Assembly (NCBI GenBank): GCA_016870095.1
Contig: VGCI01000009.1
Location: 5,518-69,517, forward strand
DNA length: 64,000 nucleotides
DNA from: Alphaproteobacteria bacterium
GTDB taxonomy: Bacteria > Pseudomonadota > Alphaproteobacteria > Paracaedibacterales > VGCI01
Direction of reading: 5' to 3'
The position numbers and the translations under genes are program-made. Shown in pieces: positions 15,967-54,609 of the stretch. The notes beneath the pieces are model-generated. The model ran no database searches, was not told where the DNA came from, and worked only from the letters and a program-made list of their open reading frames with translations. Every line of letters begins with the position of its first letter. Positions within the stretch are counted from its first letter, which is position 1.

Positions 15967-18789
15967 TTACTCCCTAGCAACCGTTTTCAGCTCTTGCGTT
16001 TCCTCTGGCATTGTATCTATGACTTCAGCTTCAGAGATAGGGCTTTCATCTTCTGAACCTGCCTCACCCTCGGTAGTATCTTCCGCATCATCATGGTCAC
16101 CCAAAGGAATGCGGCTTACAGCCACGACTTTTTCTTCCTCGCCCACACGGAAAATGGTCACCCCTTGGGTCCGTCGTCCGGCTATGCGGATGTCGTGCAC
16201 AGGGCAACGAATCAATTGTCCCCCATCTGTTACCAACATAATTTGATCTGTTGGATCAACAGGGAATGAACCAACAACACCACCATTGCGTTCATTGACA
16301 ATGATACTGTCAACACCCATGCCTCCGCGACCCGTTGTGCGGTAACCATAAGAGGAGCTTCTCTTACCAAAACCTTTTTCCGTAATCGTCAAAATAAATT
16401 GTTCGCTGCCCGCAAGCTCTAGAATGCGTTCTGGGGATAGTTTCACAGCCTCTGAAGACCCGTCTTCATCATCCAAACTATCTGATCCCAAAGCATCTTC
16501 GCCTTCCAGTCCTCCTTCAAGAGCCTGACGAGCTTTAGCAGCTTGGCGCAAATAAGCATCACGTTCTTCAGTTGAAATAACCATTTGACCCAATATACCC
16601 ATGGAGATGACTTCATCGTCTTTAGATAAGCGAATACCCCGGACACCATTGGAGTCCCGACCGACGAAGATACGAATATCTGTCATATGGAAGCGTATAC
16701 ATTTGCCTTTTTGAGTGGATAACAATACATCGTCATTTTCTGTACATGTTTGCACGGCAATTAAATTCTCGCCCTCATCCAACTTCATGGCAATTTTACC
16801 ATTTGCTTTAATATTTAAAAAATCGCTTAAGCGGTTGCGTCGAACATTCCCCTTAGAAGTCGCAAACATCACAAACATCTGATCCCACAGATTCTCCTCT
16901 TCCGGTAGGACCATTACTGTCGAAATGGTTTCTCCCTCCGACAAAGGCAGAAGGTTAATCATCGGGCGGCCTCGCGCTTGAGGCGTGGCCAATGGCAGAC
17001 GGTAGGCTTTCAACTGATAAACGCGTCCAATAGACGTAAAGAACAAAACAGGGCTATGAGTATTGGCAACAAAAACATCACTCACAATATCTTCATCACG
17101 GGTGGACATTCCTGATCGTCCCTTACCGCCACGACGTTGTGCTCTATAGGTAGACAATGGCACACGTTTGATGTAGCCATTCAAGCTTACTGTCACAACC
17201 ATGTCTTCCCGCTGAATGAGGTCTTCCATATCAACATCGGAACCCCCTTCTTCAATCGTGGTCCGTCGCGGTGTCGCGAACTGTTGTTTCATCTCAATCA
17301 GCTCGTTACGCAAGATATCCATAACCAACTGGCGAGACGCCAAAATGCGCAAATATTCAGCAATCATATCGGCAAGTTCTTGCAAATCTGCCGCTATTTT
17401 ATCCCGTTCCAACCCTGTCAAACGGTGAAGACGTAAATCCAAGATGGCTTGAGCTTGCGCATCGGAAAGTCGGTACGTATTCCCCACCACTTCTCGATCG
17501 GGTTCAACTAAAGAAATAAGAGCTGCTACGGATTCTGATGGCCAATCTTGTGCCATTAACTGTGCTTTAGCAACTTGCCGATCAGCAGCGGCACGAATCA
17601 AGGCAATGATTGGATCAATATTAGCAACCGCAATGGCTAAGCCTACAAAGAGGTGGGCTTTTTCTCGGGCCCGAGCCAGCTCATACCGCGTGCGACGCAA
17701 AATAACTTCCTCACGAAATTCGACGAAAGCTTCCAGAATTCTTTTAAGAGGCAATTGCTCGGGTCGACCATGATTAAGAGCCAACATATTGATACCAAAA
17801 GATGTTTGTAAAGCCGTATACCGGTACAATTGATTTAAAACAACATCAGGAACAGCATCTCGCTTTAACTCAATAACAACCCGCATTCCTTGACGATCGG
17901 ACTCATCTCGCAAATCAGAAATGCCTTCAATAATTTTTTCTTTGACCGTTTCGGCGATGCGCTCGATCATGCGTGATTTGTTAACTTGATAAGGAATTTC
18001 ATCAATGATAATGGCTTCCCGATCTCCCCGAAGCGTCTCAAAATGTGTTTTTCCGCGAATGACGATAGAACCACGTCCCGTACGATAGGCTTCAAAAATT
18101 CCCCCGCGCCCCATAATTGACGCCCCCGTTGGGAAATCAGGTCCGGGGACTATGGCGATGAGTTCCTCAACTGTAATGTCAGGATTATCAATAAGCGCAC
18201 AACACGCCTCTAGGACTTCCCCTAAATTGTGGGTGGGTATATTGGTTGCCATACCGACCGCAATTCCACTCCCCCCATTAACTAATATGTTCGGAAAACG
18301 GGCTGGCAGAACTTTGGGCTCAACCATGGAATCATCATAATTGGGCTGAAAATCAACGGTATCTTTATCAATGTCTTCGAGAAGGGCATGAGAGGGTTTA
18401 CTCAGCCTTGCTTCCGTATAACGGGAGGCAGCAGCAGGGTCGCCATCCATTGATCCAAAGTTTCCCTGTCCATCGATCAATGTCAGTCTTAAAGAAAAAT
18501 CTTGAGCAAGACGAACCATAGCATCATAAATTGCCATATCACCATGAGGGTGATATTTACCCATAACATCACCCACTGTTCGTGCAGATTTACGATAGGG
18601 CCGATTATATTCGTTTCCGGCTTCCTTCATCGCATACAATATGCGTCTATGAACCGGCTTCAACCCATCTCGCACGTCAGGCAATGCACGAGACACAATA
18701 ACGCTCATTGCATAATCTAAATAGGAGCGTTTCATCTCCTCTTCGATAGCAATAGGCTTAATATCTGATGGCTGAAGGGACGTTGTCAT
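15967..18789 (-). CDS. gyrA: DNA gyrase subunit A
   Basis: [29 protein letters not shown] active site, GyrA-box QRRGGKG, acidic C-tail. Confidence 0.97.
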
Positions 18790-18840
18790 CTTGCTTCTTT
18801 CCTCTTAAAAGTCTTCAAAAAAAATTACGATATCACTTCG

Positions 18841-19335
18841 TTAAAAAGGCACTTCATCATTCAAAGGGGCGCCGCTACCCAGAGGCGCCGAACTCAAACC
18901 CGCCCCAAAACCCCCACTGTTTCCCCCAGATGGAAAAGAGTCGTGTTCATAGCTACCTCCTTGATCTTCAACACCCCCACTTCCGCGAGTATCAAGCATG
19001 GTTAGTTCACCGCGGAATTTGCCAAGAACAACTTCCGTTGTATACTTTTCCTGCCCTTGTTGGTCTGTCCATTTGCGAGTCTGCAACTGTCCTTCTAGAT
19101 AAACTTTAGAGCCTTTTTTAAGAAATTTTTCTGAGACTTCTGCCAATTTATCATTGAAAACGACCACACGGTGCCATTCTGTGCGATCCCGCCGTTCACC
19201 TGATGCTTTATCTTTCCAAGATTCACTCGTTGCAACAGATAATGTTACAATTTTACCGCCCTCAGGGCTATTGCGCACTTCAGGATCCCGTCCCAAATTT
19301 CCGACCAAAATAACTTTATTTACCGATCCCGCCAT
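18841..19335 (-). CDS. ssb: Single-stranded DNA-binding protein
   Basis: [36 protein letters not shown], Gly-rich linker, C-terminal DEVPF. Confidence 0.98.
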
Positions 19336-50666: not shown

Positions 50667-51389
50667 ATGAGCAAAATTGAAGATAAAACTGTTTGGCGTG
50701 CAGAGCGGAGCGTTGGAGCCCTGGAGGGTATTGATCAAGGTTTACGCTCATACTTAAGCCAAGTTTATATGTTTATGGCCTTTGGGTTGCTATTAACAGG
50801 TGGTGCGGCTTATACAGTCGCAAATGTCCCTGCAATGATGCAACTTGTGTTTGGCACAGGCTTAAAATGGGTATTTGTTTTTGCGCCTCTTGCTCTTGTT
50901 TTCTTTTTGAGTTTTCGTATTAACACCTTGAAATATGCAACGGCACAAGCCTTATTCTGGACTTATTCAGCTATGGTGGGTGTTTCCCTTGCTTCCATAT
51001 TTTTGATGTATACGGGTACGAGCATTGCGCGCATCTTTTTCATAACATCCTCAATGTTTGGAGCCATAAGTCTTTATGGTTACACAACAAATAGAGATTT
51101 ATCGGGTATGGGATCTTTTATGTTTATGGGACTGATCGGCATTGTTATTGCCAGTATCATTAACATGTTCATGCAAAGCTCTGCGATGCAGTTTATTATT
51201 TCTATTATCTCCGTTATCGTGTTTACTGGCTTGACTGCTTATGATACGCAAACGATTAAATCGATTTATTATGCCGGAGATAACCAAGAAGTTATGGGCA
51301 AGAAAGCGTTAATGGGAGCTTTAAGGTTATATCTAGATTTCCTAAACCTCTTTTTAGCACTGCTACAACTCTTCGGCGATCGTCGCTAA
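50667..51389 (+). CDS. Bax inhibitor-1/YccA family membrane protein (start moved to ATG 50667)
   Basis: AGGAGG RBS; GLRSYL..VY..M, YGYTT.RDLS.MG.F, F.GLTAYDTQ.IK, GAL.LYLDF.NLF..LL.LFG.R. Confidence 0.93.
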   Translation: MSKIEDKTVWRAERSVGALEGIDQGLRSYLSQVYMFMAFGLLLTGGAAYTVANVPAMMQLVFGTGLKWVFVFAPLALVFFLSFRINTLKYATAQALFWTYSAMVGVSLASIFLMYTGTSIARIFFITSSMFGAISLYGYTTNRDLSGMGSFMFMGLIGIVIASIINMFMQSSAMQFIISIISVIVFTGLTAYDTQTIKSIYYAGDNQEVMGKKALMGALRLYLDFLNLFLALLQLFGDRR

Positions 51390-51412
51390 AAAAGCAAAAA
51401 ACAATTAAAGTT

Positions 51413-51444
51413 AAAGGGGATTTTTCGGAAGAAAAGTCCCCTTT
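51413..51444. terminator. Bidirectional terminator between yccA-like and PAAR-like genes
   Basis: AAAGGGGATTTTTC-GGAA-GAAAAGTCCCCTTT hairpin. Confidence 0.75.
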
Positions 51445-51460
51445 GTTTATGACGCTCGCC

Positions 51461-52429
51461 TCACGGGACAGTAGCCTTATTTTGTCCGGGATCCTCTATT
51501 TCTATAACCCCTGCATATACACAAATTAATTTTGAGGTATGAGTAAGAGTTGGTTTATCCAACATTGTGGCATCATGAGACCCAGGCAACCACGGAGTCG
51601 TTGTTTTTGGGGTACAAGGTTGAGGCCTTAACTGACCATTGGCTTTTTTTGTCGCTTCAGCAACTGCAGGATTGGCACGACTCGTACAATAGCAAAACGG
51701 ACGAATGTTAATATTGGGAAGATGATCCATAACGGAACCTACAGCGTTGCCATCCACAGTGGCTATAGAATCTAAATTCATATCAATCCCACCAGAAACC
51801 GCTGGCACTTTTATGGACGCGGTCAGTCCAATACCAACACCTGCACCCGCTTGTGCCTGAGCACCAATCCCACTTTTTATGGCTTGAGATTGTTGCGCGG
51901 CTCCCTTCATCGCACCGTTGACAAATTCTTCCTTAGAAAGAACAGCGCCCGTTTCAACATTATAAGTCACTCGCATTCCATGTTCCTTACCGGCCGCAAA
52001 ATTTGTCTGGACTGCCAATCGACCTTGAGCGTCATAGAATTTACTTTCTCCAGCCATAACCCCTTTATTAAAATGCATCTGCGCCGTTACGACACCATTA
52101 TCATATATCATGGCAGGCCCATGGAGTTTGCCACCCACAAACATCAGTCTTTGCGTTGCTTGTCCCTTTGCATCAAAGGTCGCGCTCTCCCCCATAGCAA
52201 CACCTGCTTTAAAATTTGCTTGCGCAACTACTTTTCCGGAAGCATCAAATTTTTTGACAAGACCGTCAGGAACGGTAAGACTTGCGCCTAATACTACGCC
52301 CCCACCGACAGCACCTACCCCTGTTGAAACGGCTTCAATGGGAATTTCCAAAGGAGATACTTTTAATTTGCTAGAACAGGTGCCATATGAACAAGTTAGA
52401 CTAACCTTATCAACAACAAAAAAGACCAT
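51461..52429 (-). CDS. DUF4280 (PAAR-like) T6SS spike-tip protein split by a MORN-like repeat insertion
   Basis: N-terminal LTCSYG.CSS.L.V and C-terminal MDHLPNINIRPFCYC.S.ANPAVA.AT...PQPC.P.T..PW.PG...KLIC.YAG.I.I.DPGQ are DUF4280 hallmarks; five ~24-aa repeats (Y/F)D..G......(F)..G...G lie between; ATG 52429 has an AAGGGG RBS (ORF track starts at TTG 52435). Confidence 0.85.
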   Translation of the reverse strand: MVFFVVDKVSLTCSYGTCSSKLKVSPLEIPIEAVSTGVGAVGGGVVLGASLTVPDGLVKKFDASGKVVAQANFKAGVAMGESATFDAKGQATQRLMFVGGKLHGPAMIYDNGVVTAQMHFNKGVMAGESKFYDAQGRLAVQTNFAAGKEHGMRVTYNVETGAVLSKEEFVNGAMKGAAQQSQAIKSGIGAQAQAGAGVGIGLTASIKVPAVSGGIDMNLDSIATVDGNAVGSVMDHLPNINIRPFCYCTSRANPAVAEATKKANGQLRPQPCTPKTTTPWLPGSHDATMLDKPTLTHTSKLICVYAGVIEIEDPGQNKATVP

Positions 52430-52473
52430 TTTCAAACCCCTTTAATGTGGCATAGGTATTCCCCATTTCAGCT

Positions 52474-54609
52474 TTACCCAATCTTTAATGCACCTTTAAT
52501 GTTAACGACAGGGCCTTGAAGAATAATACCCGCACCCGCCTGCATTTTGATGGCAGCATCCGCTTTTATACTAATGATGGCTCCTTTCACTTGAACCATA
52601 GCTGTTGATTCGACAGAAAGAGGACCCGTGGCCTTCAGGGAAGCCAATGCACTGGATTCTATACTCAAAGGGCCTGTCGATTTTATACTTGCGACCGCAC
52701 TGGATTCTATACTCAAAGGGCCCGTGGACTTCAAACTTGCCGTTGCACTAGACTCAATACTGAGGGGCCCTGTAGATTTAATATTCGTATTCCCTTTGGA
52801 TTCCATATCGATGTTTCCAGATGCTTTAATCGTAATATTGCCCGTCACGTCAATGGTCATGTTACCCCCACCTAACGTTATTTTTTGGTTCCCTTTAGAG
52901 ATTTTGATAATGTCATCGCCATTGGTGATGGAAAGGGTATTTGTTGTTCCCGACCCTTTTAATTCAACCATCCGATTTCCCTTGTCTAAAGTCAGGGTAT
53001 CATGACCCGTATCTCCCCCATTTAACGTGACCTTTCTCTCTCCCTTTTTAATTGTTGAGGTATCATCTCCGGTTTTGATGAGGAGAGTTCGTGAGTGTTC
53101 AACTTCTGAATCCCAATCTTTTTGAGCATGAAGAAAAATTTGTTCACTTCCCTTTTTATCCTCATATCTAAATTCATTAAAACCGCCTCCACCTTTGGAG
53201 GTATCGGACTTAATTGTACTTTTTGTCGGTTCACTTTTGGCGTAAGGATTTGCATTTTTACCGTTGTAAACACATCCCGTAATTAAAGGCCGATCCGGAT
53301 CCCCATCCAGAAACGTGACGACAACTTCCATCCCAATGCGCGGCGTAAAAACACCGCCCCAATTGTTTCCCGCCCATAATTGAGCTACGCGAATCCAACA
53401 GGAACTTTTCTCATCTTGGGTCCCTCGTTGATCCCAATGAAAATGGACTTTAACGCGCCCAAATTCATCAGTCCAAATTTCTTCTCCAGCTTTGGTCGTG
53501 ACAATAGCTGTTTGCGTACTATGAATCAGGGGCTTAGGGGTTATAAGTTGCGGACGGAAAGGTACATCTGCCGGAAATGCTACAAACTCATTTTCATACA
53601 GCTCTTCACTTTCACTTTTTGCATTCTGATTAATGCGATGATGCACACGATAAAGAACATACTTTTTATTTAAATCAGATCGTGGATGTTCTGCCATCGT
53701 AAAGCTATACATGGAACAGAAAGTAGGTACTGTAGAAAACCCACTTAAAGTAATTTTAGCCCATTCTAAGTCTTGAATTCGATGATTGGCAATTAAGTCC
53801 CCCTCATCGGATTTCATAAACATACCGGGATATTGATAAACTTCACCGCCCATACCTTTGCCAGACACTTTGTTGTAAAGCTTCGTTGTGGGAGTCTTAA
53901 AATTAAAGTCTGCTGCTGCAAACTTCTTGACCACGACTTTTTCTTGATTTCGTACGGTATAAAGCATATTAAAGGGCGGTTTTGAAGAATATGATTTTAG
54001 AAACTTAATCGTCCCCGGGTCTACATCCTCTGCTCCTTTCGAATCATCACAAATAACCATTTTGTGAGCAGAGCTCGTGTGCTCAAAATAGTAAAATATG
54101 CCCTCTTCTTCCATGAGTCGACAAATAAAATCAAAACAACTTTCGGCATATTGCACGCAGTATTTACGCACTCTTTTGCCACAAGAGGATGTCTTATCTT
54201 CTATTTCTGTCACATCATTATCGCTTAAAACTTCCTTGATAATTTCCATCGCTGTTTTATTTTGAAAAATGCGGTGGTCACGCGTAAATTTCAGCAACCA
54301 AAATTTGGGATATATTTTGGCTTGATAAAAAGTATAATTATTTTTCCCCTTTTTTACGGTCCAACCCTGTTCTGCCGTGCCTACAATTCCGCAGAAATAT
54401 CTTTTGCCCTTTCCATACTCGTAAGTAACTTGGATTTCCTTCCCCACAAGCTTAGATAAATCAAGATCGGGCGATAGCGAGTGCATATCAAGATTAAAAC
54501 AAAAAGGCTCAGAAATTTGCTCCACACCATCAAATCTGTCCATTATCAAGGCATCTTTGCCTAAAGGAGTGCTGATCTTTAAATTCACTTTATCTTGAAC
54601 TGCAAGCAT
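52474..54609 (-). CDS. vgrG: Type VI secretion spike protein VgrG (TssI)
   Basis: YCVQY.ES.FDF..RLMEEEGI.Y.FEH, IWTDE.GRVKV.FHWD, SSCW.RVAQ.WAG..WG..F.PRIG.EV.V.FLDGDPDRP, FNE.R.EDKKG.EQIFLHAQKD. Confidence 0.95.
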   Translation of the reverse strand: MLAVQDKVNLKISTPLGKDALIMDRFDGVEQISEPFCFNLDMHSLSPDLDLSKLVGKEIQVTYEYGKGKRYFCGIVGTAEQGWTVKKGKNNYTFYQAKIYPKFWLLKFTRDHRIFQNKTAMEIIKEVLSDNDVTEIEDKTSSCGKRVRKYCVQYAESCFDFICRLMEEEGIFYYFEHTSSAHKMVICDDSKGAEDVDPGTIKFLKSYSSKPPFNMLYTVRNQEKVVVKKFAAADFNFKTPTTKLYNKVSGKGMGGEVYQYPGMFMKSDEGDLIANHRIQDLEWAKITLSGFSTVPTFCSMYSFTMAEHPRSDLNKKYVLYRVHHRINQNAKSESEELYENEFVAFPADVPFRPQLITPKPLIHSTQTAIVTTKAGEEIWTDEFGRVKVHFHWDQRGTQDEKSSCWIRVAQLWAGNNWGGVFTPRIGMEVVVTFLDGDPDRPLITGCVYNGKNANPYAKSEPTKSTIKSDTSKGGGGFNEFRYEDKKGSEQIFLHAQKDWDSEVEHSRTLLIKTGDDTSTIKKGERKVTLNGGDTGHDTLTLDKGNRMVELKGSGTTNTLSITNGDDIIKISKGNQKITLGGGNMTIDVTGNITIKASGNIDMESKGNTNIKSTGPLSIESSATASLKSTGPLSIESSAVASIKSTGPLSIESSALASLKATGPLSVESTAMVQVKGAIISIKADAAIKMQAGAGIILQGPVVNIKGALKIG
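52588..52779 (-). repeat. Four tandem 48-bp (16-aa) repeats in vgrG
   Basis: K(S/A)TGPLS(I/V)ES(S/T)AxxxL/I/V x4; GCACTGGATTCTATACTCAAAGGGCC is identical at 52649 and 52697. Confidence 0.93.

Follow-up and report, generated by a model that had tools for sequence, protein, structure and literature searches.

A DUF4280 tip protein split by a TseF-like MORN_2 module in an alphaproteobacterial type VI secretion system

Results

Gene organization of the tip locus

We analysed a stretch of 64,000 nucleotides (nt; hereafter, the window) from an Alphaproteobacteria bacterium of the order Paracaedibacterales (GenBank assembly GCA_016870095.1, contig VGCI01000009.1, positions 5,518 to 69,517 of the forward strand). 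On its minus strand, directly downstream of a co-oriented vgrG, lies a gene for a PAAR-like (DUF4280) tip protein of a type VI secretion system (T6SS), and the tip domain encoded by this gene is interrupted by a module of MORN_2 repeats. In the list of open reading frames (ORFs) of the window, the open frame spans 51461..52435 on the minus strand. The true start is, however, almost certainly the ATG at 52429 rather than the TTG at 52435, because a Shine-Dalgarno sequence is located 7 nt upstream of this ATG, the TTG abuts the Shine-Dalgarno sequence, and the homologs all begin at the corresponding Met. The predicted product is 322 amino acids (aa) long, and the range initially annotated, 51461-52429, already agrees with this start. 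The gap from the vgrG stop is 44 nt to the ATG and 38 nt to the TTG. The genes flanking the tip locus encode Bax1-I, Sua5, UvrA, and RuvA. Residue numbers follow the initial annotation, in which TTG 52435 is residue 1. The features of the locus are listed below; pLDDT denotes the predicted local distance difference test score of AlphaFold2.

51461..52429, minus strand: whole ORF, 322 aa and stop; DUF4280 tip protein interrupted by a TseF-like MORN_2 module (Pfam, splice test, assemblies)
52437..52443, minus strand: Shine-Dalgarno AAAGGGG, 7 nt 5' of the ATG (read from the sequence)
52346..52429, minus strand: DUF4280 N-part (MVFFVVDKVSLTCSYGTCSSKLKVSPLE), first strands, with C15 and the family-specific C20 (the splice test restores profile positions 1-27; canonical N-termini align; pLDDT 81-97)
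52271..52345, minus strand: tether 1, Gly/Val/Ala-rich, predicted to be disordered, hypervariable (18-70 aa; pLDDT ~40; pairwise identity 0.18)
51902..52270, minus strand: TseF-like MORN_2 module, five β-hairpin repeats of 23-25 aa in a predicted single-layer antiparallel sheet (AlphaFold2, Foldseek, BLASTP, hhalign)
51764..51901, minus strand: tether 2, Ala/Gly/Gln-rich, predicted to be disordered, hypervariable (28-93 aa; pLDDT 30-40; pairwise identity 0.18)
51464..51763, minus strand: DUF4280 C-part, ~100 residues, with C250, C274, C305 and the family-specific C248 (Pfam profile positions 28-109; pLDDT mostly 85-97)
52474..54609, minus strand: vgrG, 711 aa, co-oriented, directly upstream of the tip gene (TIGR03361, E 1.6e-173; Phage_GPD, Phage_base_V, Gp5_trimer_C)

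The DUF4280 domain is split in two

The Pfam profile of DUF4280 (PF14107) matched only residues 226-318 of the native protein, corresponding to profile positions 28-109, with 75.9 bits (cut-off 26.3). When the insert was deleted in silico, the match extended over the full length of the profile (1-109) and its score rose to 87.7 bits, compared with 74.1 bits for the C-part alone. In a MAFFT alignment with 49 canonical DUF4280 proteins of ~128 aa, each canonical protein placed 26-30 residues on residues 1-30 and ~100 on residues 221-324, whereas the insert received none. The break point is located directly after the conserved 'VLPxN' stretch.

The structure was then predicted by AlphaFold2 from a 63-sequence alignment comprising 14 split and 49 canonical DUF4280 proteins. 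Four rows of standalone MORN proteins were dropped from this alignment, as MAFFT had spilled them onto the DUF4280 columns. The pLDDT values were 81-97 for the N-part, mostly 85-97 for the C-part, 75-90 for the repeat core (residues 57-178), and below 50 for the linkers (residues 30-54 and 180-223). The values of the N-part were reached only when the canonical sequences were present in the alignment, and were ~30 without them. A run on 11 sequences of the split family only, with a mean pLDDT of 44.5 and the DUF4280 part unresolved, was superseded by the 63-sequence run. In a Foldseek search, PAAR structures were not among the top 50 matches, as expected because ~195 residues of chain split the small cone. 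The PDB contains a sequence relative, 9jg8_B (residues 6-114); a literature search on 9jg8 and 9jg9 found nothing relevant.

Therefore, we concluded that the first ~28 and the last ~100 residues together form one DUF4280 domain, which is interrupted by an insert of ~195 aa. This split had been proposed in the initial annotation, and Pfam, the in silico deletion, MAFFT, and AlphaFold2 all agreed with it. A check of the InterPro type had also been suggested there; in our searches DUF4280 was matched in the C-part, and the first ~28 residues completed the profile once the insert was removed.

The four cysteines expected to bind metal (C15, C250, C274, and C305) were kept in 63/63 of the aligned split and canonical sequences, in line with the earlier claim that they are retained. 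They correspond to the four metal-binding Cys residues that are essential in IglG of Francisella (PMC5014421). Two further cysteines distinguished the split proteins: C20 in the N-part (in CSYGTC; window 52376-52378) and C248 in the C-part (in PFCYC; 51692-51694) were present in 14/14 split proteins and 0/49 canonical ones, which have mostly Ala and Gly at these positions. Each DUF4280 piece carries one of the pair, and each of the two lies beside a metal ligand. This distribution suggests that C20 and C248 form a clasp or a second metal site offsetting the interruption of the domain; they probably help to clamp the two DUF4280 pieces together. The pair, which is perfectly correlated with the split, is a structural adaptation that is concrete and open to testing.

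The insert is a MORN_2 repeat module on two tethers

The insert contains five repeats of 23-25 aa each, which cover residues 57-176 and were predicted by AlphaFold2 to form 10 strands over residues 58-172 (pLDDT 75-90). The Pfam match to MORN_2 (PF07661) was marginal for the whole protein (29.8 bits; cut-off 29.6) and reached 32.8 bits for the insert alone; bona fide MORN_2 proteins homologous to the insert score 64-90 bits. The matches found by Foldseek (E 2e-4 to 4e-3) included MORN1 of Toxoplasma, Plasmodium, and Trypanosoma (6t4d, 6t69, and 6t4r), junctophilin-2 (9uo9), SET7/9, and axonemal MORN proteins; the insert also matched the single-layer sheet of OspA. The periodic glycines of the repeat core are invariant across the family. 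The five MORN-like repeats first noticed by eye are thus confirmed by the predicted strands, the Foldseek matches, and the homology to MORN_2 proteins, with Pfam remaining marginal.

Two linkers flank the repeats. The similar Gly-rich motifs previously described on both sides of them are present in this sequence, but within the family no part is less conserved than the linkers (identity 0.18). Only short 'hydrophobic-x-hydrophobic-Pro' ends recur in them. Tether 1 was also considered as a transmembrane or glycine-zipper segment, by analogy with the transmembrane domains of prePAAR proteins described below. This was rejected: the peak Kyte-Doolittle hydrophobicity of the protein (19-aa window), which falls in tether 1, is a borderline 1.54, and neither the hydrophobic character nor the composition and length of the tether is conserved in the family.

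The mean pairwise identity was 0.57 in the N-part, 0.50 in the repeat core, and 0.60 in the C-part, with each tether at 0.18. This pattern is the one that would be expected of two folded modules on flexible linkers.

Three states of the locus in one genus

A scan of 62 species genomes of the order with the PF14107 profile detected one DUF4280 per genome in 32 of them. Within the genus of the window, the split form was present in three genomes (that of the window, G000, together with G057 and G058), and a canonical DUF4280 protein of 128-129 aa in three others (G056, G059, and G061). G056 and G059 hold it in the same chromosomal slot as the window (RuvA ... VgrG ... Bax1-I, Sua5, UvrA), where the order is VgrG, a standalone MORN_2 protein (231-239 aa), the canonical DUF4280 protein (128-129 aa), Bax1-I, and Sua5.

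The insert is homologous to this standalone neighbour. In BLASTP, the insert of the window protein was colinear with residues 23-174 of the G056 MORN_2 protein (30% identity, E 3e-23), with exactly one 24-aa repeat missing, and the six-repeat insert of another split protein, P0014, showed 46% identity over 157 residues (E 3e-44). Both alignments start at a shared TVP(D/N)G motif, so that TVPDG, the end of the left linker, goes back to the N-terminus of the standalone protein. The comparison of the insert with the standalone MORN_2 family by hhalign gave a probability of 99.8% (E 3.7e-28). The module of the window protein lacks the C-terminal ~55 residues of the ~231-aa G056 protein.

The adjacency of the two genes is widespread. 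A MORN_2 gene is located immediately upstream of the canonical DUF4280 gene in 14 of the 28 canonical-DUF4280 genomes of the order, in four families, and vgrG, MORN_2, and canonical DUF4280 also occur together in Pyrinomonadaceae (Acidobacteriota), Kapaibacteria, and Massilia. A MORN protein flanks DUF4280 in Clostridia and Paenibacillus as well. Many genomes of the order keep DUF4280 without an adjacent MORN_2 gene, among them those of family f9. In a maximum-likelihood tree of the DUF4280 portions, the 14 split proteins formed one clade (UFBoot 99 / SH-aLRT 87), which was nested (88/92) with canonical proteins of the same genus and the same order. It follows that the MORN_2 gene merged with the DUF4280 gene a single time, in place and within one genus. 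The first ~28 DUF4280 codons may have reached their position upstream of MORN_2 either by transposition of a segment or by duplication followed by deletion.

Some tblastn matches in Acidobacteria, Clostridia, Massilia, and others extended over query residues 57-324 and initially resembled the split architecture in other phyla. These candidates were rejected, as their ORFs were adjacent MORN and canonical DUF4280 genes. An apparent end-to-end fusion of MORN_2 and DUF4280 was seen in a Massilia-like protein of the Logan assemblies (P0169, 356 aa, '...LLRGMMGQQVCGG...'). It has a frameshifted twin, P0168, and would represent an independent fusion or an assembly error at an overlapping stop/start (ATGA); since the twin allows the latter, P0169 was not used as evidence of fusion. 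In four Clostridia stretches (L009, L011, L013, and L038) and one from Paenibacillus (L040), the canonical DUF4280 is flanked by large, apparently membrane-anchored MORN-repeat proteins. These Gram-positive genomes lack a T6SS, and VgrG was not seen within the stretches examined; the partnership of MORN proteins with DUF4280 thus seems to reach beyond the T6SS.

A third state of the locus was observed in another genome of the genus, G060 (L103 3181-3978, G060:C58). Its DUF4280 is split at the same position by a low-complexity, D/L/F/E-rich insert of ~140 aa with 'hydrophobic-x-hydrophobic-x-L-P' repeats and without MORN units. The protein has a Gly/Ala-rich insertion in the C-part, lacks the C20/C248 pair, and scores only 40 bits for DUF4280. 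No TseF-like gene was found in the G060 genome. Either decay of this copy or a different type of insert could explain this form.

The T6SS of the genome has a single tip

The genome of the window (G000; 1.8 Mb, 99% complete) carries T6SS genes scattered as mini-operons among housekeeping genes: TssB, TssC, two Hcp-like proteins, and TssE on contig C7 (97151-101300), TssF and TssG on C4 (71406-74293), TssM and TssL on C3 (76039-78074), and vgrG with the tip gene on C9, the contig of the window. TssM was found through PF14331, with no match to PF06761 (the IcmF-related TssM domain). The two Hcp-like paralogs are 199 aa long, have N-terminal extensions, and gave weak Pfam Hcp matches (20-28 bits). 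As judged from this gene content, the T6SS is near-complete, with its core genes intact.

Exactly one VgrG and exactly one DUF4280 protein were found in G000. A classical PAAR protein (PF05488) had no match in the whole genome, even at E<=0.1, and the genome contained no second MORN_2 gene. Therefore, every firing of this T6SS would carry the split tip. In the region encoding the C-terminal part of VgrG (window 52649-52696), a 'goes back 48' joint was present in all four assemblies compared. It falls in tandem STGPLSIESSA(x)AS(L/I)K repeats, whose copy number may differ between assemblies or be collapsed.

The split tip gene is maintained

One explanation of the architecture is that it is a decaying or accidental fusion, or an artefact of assembly or annotation, with a functionless insert and a T6SS that is perhaps degenerating in a reduced genome. 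The insert without MORN units at the same site in G060 and the weak DUF4280 of that protein are compatible with decay, as are the long branches of the split proteins, the small genome of 1.8 Mb, and the scattering of the T6SS genes. The ORF, however, was contiguous and free of indels in four independent assemblies, which came from metagenomes of lake water, groundwater, and wastewater and from a run labelled with a named organism. Compared with a strain 97.5% identical, the gene differed at 21 codons, 17 of them synonymously and 4 nonsynonymously. Furthermore, a set of 5.8 billion proteins contained about 15 clusters with the split architecture when grouped at 90% identity, and a set of 1.84 billion representatives contained four or five at 50% identity. 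In the ~15 clusters, among which identity falls to 33%, the architecture, all six Cys residues, and the periodic glycines are preserved, and distant members retain the RuvA-VgrG-tip-Bax1-I neighbourhood. Conservation of the repeat core comes close to that of the DUF4280 parts, and the T6SS core genes are intact. These results showed that the tip gene is intact and under purifying selection. Decay or artefact is already largely refuted, and we consider it very improbable.

The 97.5% identical strain came from run X17 ('organism A', 2024, not a metagenome), where it was present at a depth of ~11 on a 40-kb contig covering window positions 51300-52696; this could indicate a host or a co-culture. 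On the contig of a relative, the one carrying P0009 (L001), a 474-aa pentapeptide-repeat protein and an 823-aa Sel1-repeat protein are encoded near the conserved locus (1177-2601 and 16827-19298). Repeat proteins of the pentapeptide and Sel1 types are typical of host-associated bacteria.

Discussion

Relation to TseF

The closest precedent for the insert is found in the H3-T6SS of Pseudomonas aeruginosa, in which TseF (PA2374), a protein of 178 aa with predicted MORN motifs, is encoded beside vgrG3 (PA2373) (PMC5379069). TseF is released into supernatants in an H3-T6SS-dependent manner, was pulled down with VgrG3, and binds the Pseudomonas quinolone signal (PQS) and the outer-membrane receptors FptA and OprF (PMC5379069). 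The TseF family of Lin et al. (2017) comprises MORN_2 proteins syntenic with vgrG and PAAR-type genes (PMC5379069, Supplementary Fig. 2), and the next gene, PA2375, encodes a DUF4280 PAAR-like protein (PMC5014421; PMC9846239). The same synteny was found for the standalone relatives of our insert (L087, L089, L008, L014, and L042) and in the 14 of 28 genomes of the order described above. As in vgrG3-tseF-PA2375, the unfused locus of the sister species consists of VgrG, a small MORN_2 protein, and a DUF4280 tip, in the same order and with no toxin/immunity pair. Unlike TseF, the MORN_2 module of the window protein is not a separate protein but is covalently embedded in DUF4280.

The initial annotation had compared the repeats with YwqK-type immunity proteins, and an insert acting as an immunity or antitoxin domain against a toxin is conceivable from names alone: JGI and NCBI call homologs 'antitoxin component YwqK' or 'YwqK family antitoxin', and MORN_2 is the Pfam family of YwqK. 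No toxin domain was found, however, in the tip protein or in the flanking Bax1-I, Sua5, UvrA, and RuvA; an immunity domain would have no rationale on a secreted spike tip; and the consistent partners of the module are vgrG and DUF4280, as for TseF. We regard such a role as extremely unlikely. The TseF family is the better comparator, the insert being derived from such a neighbour gene. The earlier description of the tip as non-toxic held, as there was neither a toxin domain nor an adjacent immunity gene.

Relation to other tip proteins

A tip domain divided by an insert is known from the prePAAR effectors (e.g. Tse6 and RhsA; Ahmad et al. 2020), in which an N-terminal motif of the 'split PAAR' provides the first Zn ligand and is followed by transmembrane segments and then by the rest of the domain (PMC7773334). 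The insert is tethered at both ends, and a joint fold of the two PAAR pieces that binds VgrG has been proposed (PMC7773334). The window protein resembles them in that its tip domain is broken after the first segment and that this segment carries the first metal ligand, here C15. The prePAAR proteins have a canonical PAAR domain (PF05488, His/Cys Zn site), one or two transmembrane regions, Eag chaperones, and a C-terminal toxin, whereas the window protein has a DUF4280 domain (Cys4) and a folded, soluble repeat insert of ~120 aa plus tethers, without transmembrane domain, Eag gene, or toxin. No Eag chaperone gene was found in the tip locus, and the prePAAR motif AARxxDxxxH is absent from the N-part, which reads MVFFVVDKVSLTCSYGTC. 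Unlike the prePAAR case, the evolutionary origin of the insert is visible for the window protein.

IglG of Francisella is a DUF4280 PAAR-like protein with four essential metal-binding Cys and an extra non-toxic interaction module, and it belongs to the T6SS of an intracellular bacterium (PMC5014421). The window protein likewise combines a Cys4 DUF4280 tip with an extra non-toxic module; the extension of IglG is an N-terminal α-helix, whereas that of the window protein is an internal β-repeat insert. It is not an IglG ortholog, because the NCBIfam model of IglG (NF041248) gave 25.9 bits against a cut-off of 200.

A dedicated partner gene between vgrG and the gene of a PAAR-like tip is also known for another family. 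According to the available part of the report, DUF2169 is a non-secreted chaperone of the DUF4150 'PIPY' PAAR-like tip, its gene lies between vgrG and the tip gene, and multidomain DUF2169 proteins that carry an extension of pentapeptide repeats at the C-terminus occur; that part describes no insertion inside the tip domain for DUF2169/DUF4150 (PMC11883445). The arrangement is similar, but the protein families differ.

The internal insertion had been noted as an undescribed architecture. In the literature searched, neither a link of MORN with DUF4280 nor an insertion inside DUF4280 was found, but a split tip with a doubly tethered insert is known from prePAAR (PMC7773334). What is new here is the DUF4280 scaffold, the folded soluble insert, its traceable origin, and the two extra Cys residues specific to the split family.

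A tip with a probable built-in cargo or binding module

Since sister species hold separate genes in the same slot, we interpret the window protein as a TseF-like cargo merged with its PAAR-like tip. It is likely that the protein is an 'evolved' PAAR-like (DUF4280) T6SS tip with a cargo or binding module built into the tip domain. The two DUF4280 pieces would pack around the Cys4 metal site as one fold that caps the VgrG trimer, and the repeat module would hang off the cone by two tethers and leave the cell with the spike at every firing. It would thus be exported as a covalent part of the tip and not as separate cargo bound non-covalently. By analogy, the module most likely is a non-enzymatic binder of a ligand, receptor, or surface, for which a host-directed role is possible. 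The view that a β-hairpin repeat module is grafted inside the tip domain, as first suggested in the initial annotation, is supported by the evidence for the split domain and for MORN_2.

The MORN_2 module could instead be a built-in chaperone or adaptor that stabilises the tip, loads it onto VgrG, or docks a separate effector, the fusion having made the helper intramolecular. The place of the standalone MORN_2 gene, between vgrG and the PAAR-like gene, is the classic one for an adaptor. Precedents are the Eag chaperones of prePAAR effectors and, in the part of PMC11883445 cited above, DUF2169 for 'PIPY' tips, which indicates that PAAR-like tips can need a neighbouring helper. DUF4280 proteins have been reported to be poorly soluble (PMC5014421), and a glutathione S-transferase (GST) fusion, GST-TseF, binds VgrG3 directly (PMC5379069). 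Known T6SS chaperones are, however, not secreted and are released before firing, which would be impossible for a doubly tethered covalent module. TseF itself was found in supernatants in a T6SS-dependent manner (PMC5379069), and the many genomes with DUF4280 and no adjacent MORN_2 gene, including family f9, indicate that the tip does not generally need MORN_2. We therefore judge a chaperone function to be rather unlikely and prefer the cargo or binding role, because a covalent link at both ends fits poorly with release before firing.

Several points weigh against the interpretation as a tip with built-in cargo. The predicted template modelling score (pTM) of the AlphaFold2 model was only 0.47, and it is from pLDDT and alignments that we predict whether the N- and C-parts touch, where the insertion point lies with respect to the face that binds VgrG, and how the six Cys are arranged. 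The link to TseF consists of the shared Pfam family (MORN_2), a similar size, and the synteny with vgrG and PAAR-like genes reported in the literature, and not of the PA2374 sequence itself; in a homolog search directed toward P. aeruginosa TseF, no hit was named as Pseudomonas. The TseF ligands PQS, FptA, and OprF, whose biology is specific to Pseudomonas, have no evident counterpart here. Finally, the tip protein evolves fast: identity between congeners is 33-48%, compared with 66-76% for VgrG, 72-82% for RuvA, 75-78% for Sua5, and 86-89% for UvrA. This fast divergence could represent adaptation or, in part, relaxed constraint.

More speculatively, the DUF4280 loop after the first strands might be a general, evolvable internal 'cargo slot' of PAAR-like tips that captures neighbouring cargo genes, with the new Cys pair stabilising the split as a second metal site or clasp, and in this clade of freshwater Alphaproteobacteria with small genomes the sole T6SS might fire a hard-wired, non-toxic binding module for interaction with a eukaryotic host or for resource acquisition. 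We put this forward tentatively and consider it doubtful as a whole; if true, specialised T6SS spikes could arise in a third way, in addition to N- and C-terminal extensions.

The tip gene shows how a cargo can become hard-wired to the needle tip, and it is a variant of known designs rather than a new kind of system. The 'split tip' principle is extended from canonical PAAR with transmembrane inserts to DUF4280 with a folded soluble domain, and large insertions therefore seem to be tolerated in the first loop of PAAR-like cones. Such a loop is useful for understanding, and possibly for engineering, the attachment of cargo to T6SS spikes. The three states of the locus in one genus (separate genes, MORN insert, and low-complexity insert) offer a rare before-and-after view of the rise of an evolved spike. 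As a natural 'Rosetta stone' fusion, the gene also argues that MORN_2 proteins of the TseF family work in physical association with the adjacent DUF4280 tip. The loading mechanism of TseF is only partly known, from the VgrG3 pull-down, and the prediction of TseF on DUF4280 is testable in P. aeruginosa PAO1 with TseF and PA2375. The value of the finding thus lies in a visible evolutionary path and in the testable prediction that cargo of the TseF family rides on DUF4280 tips.

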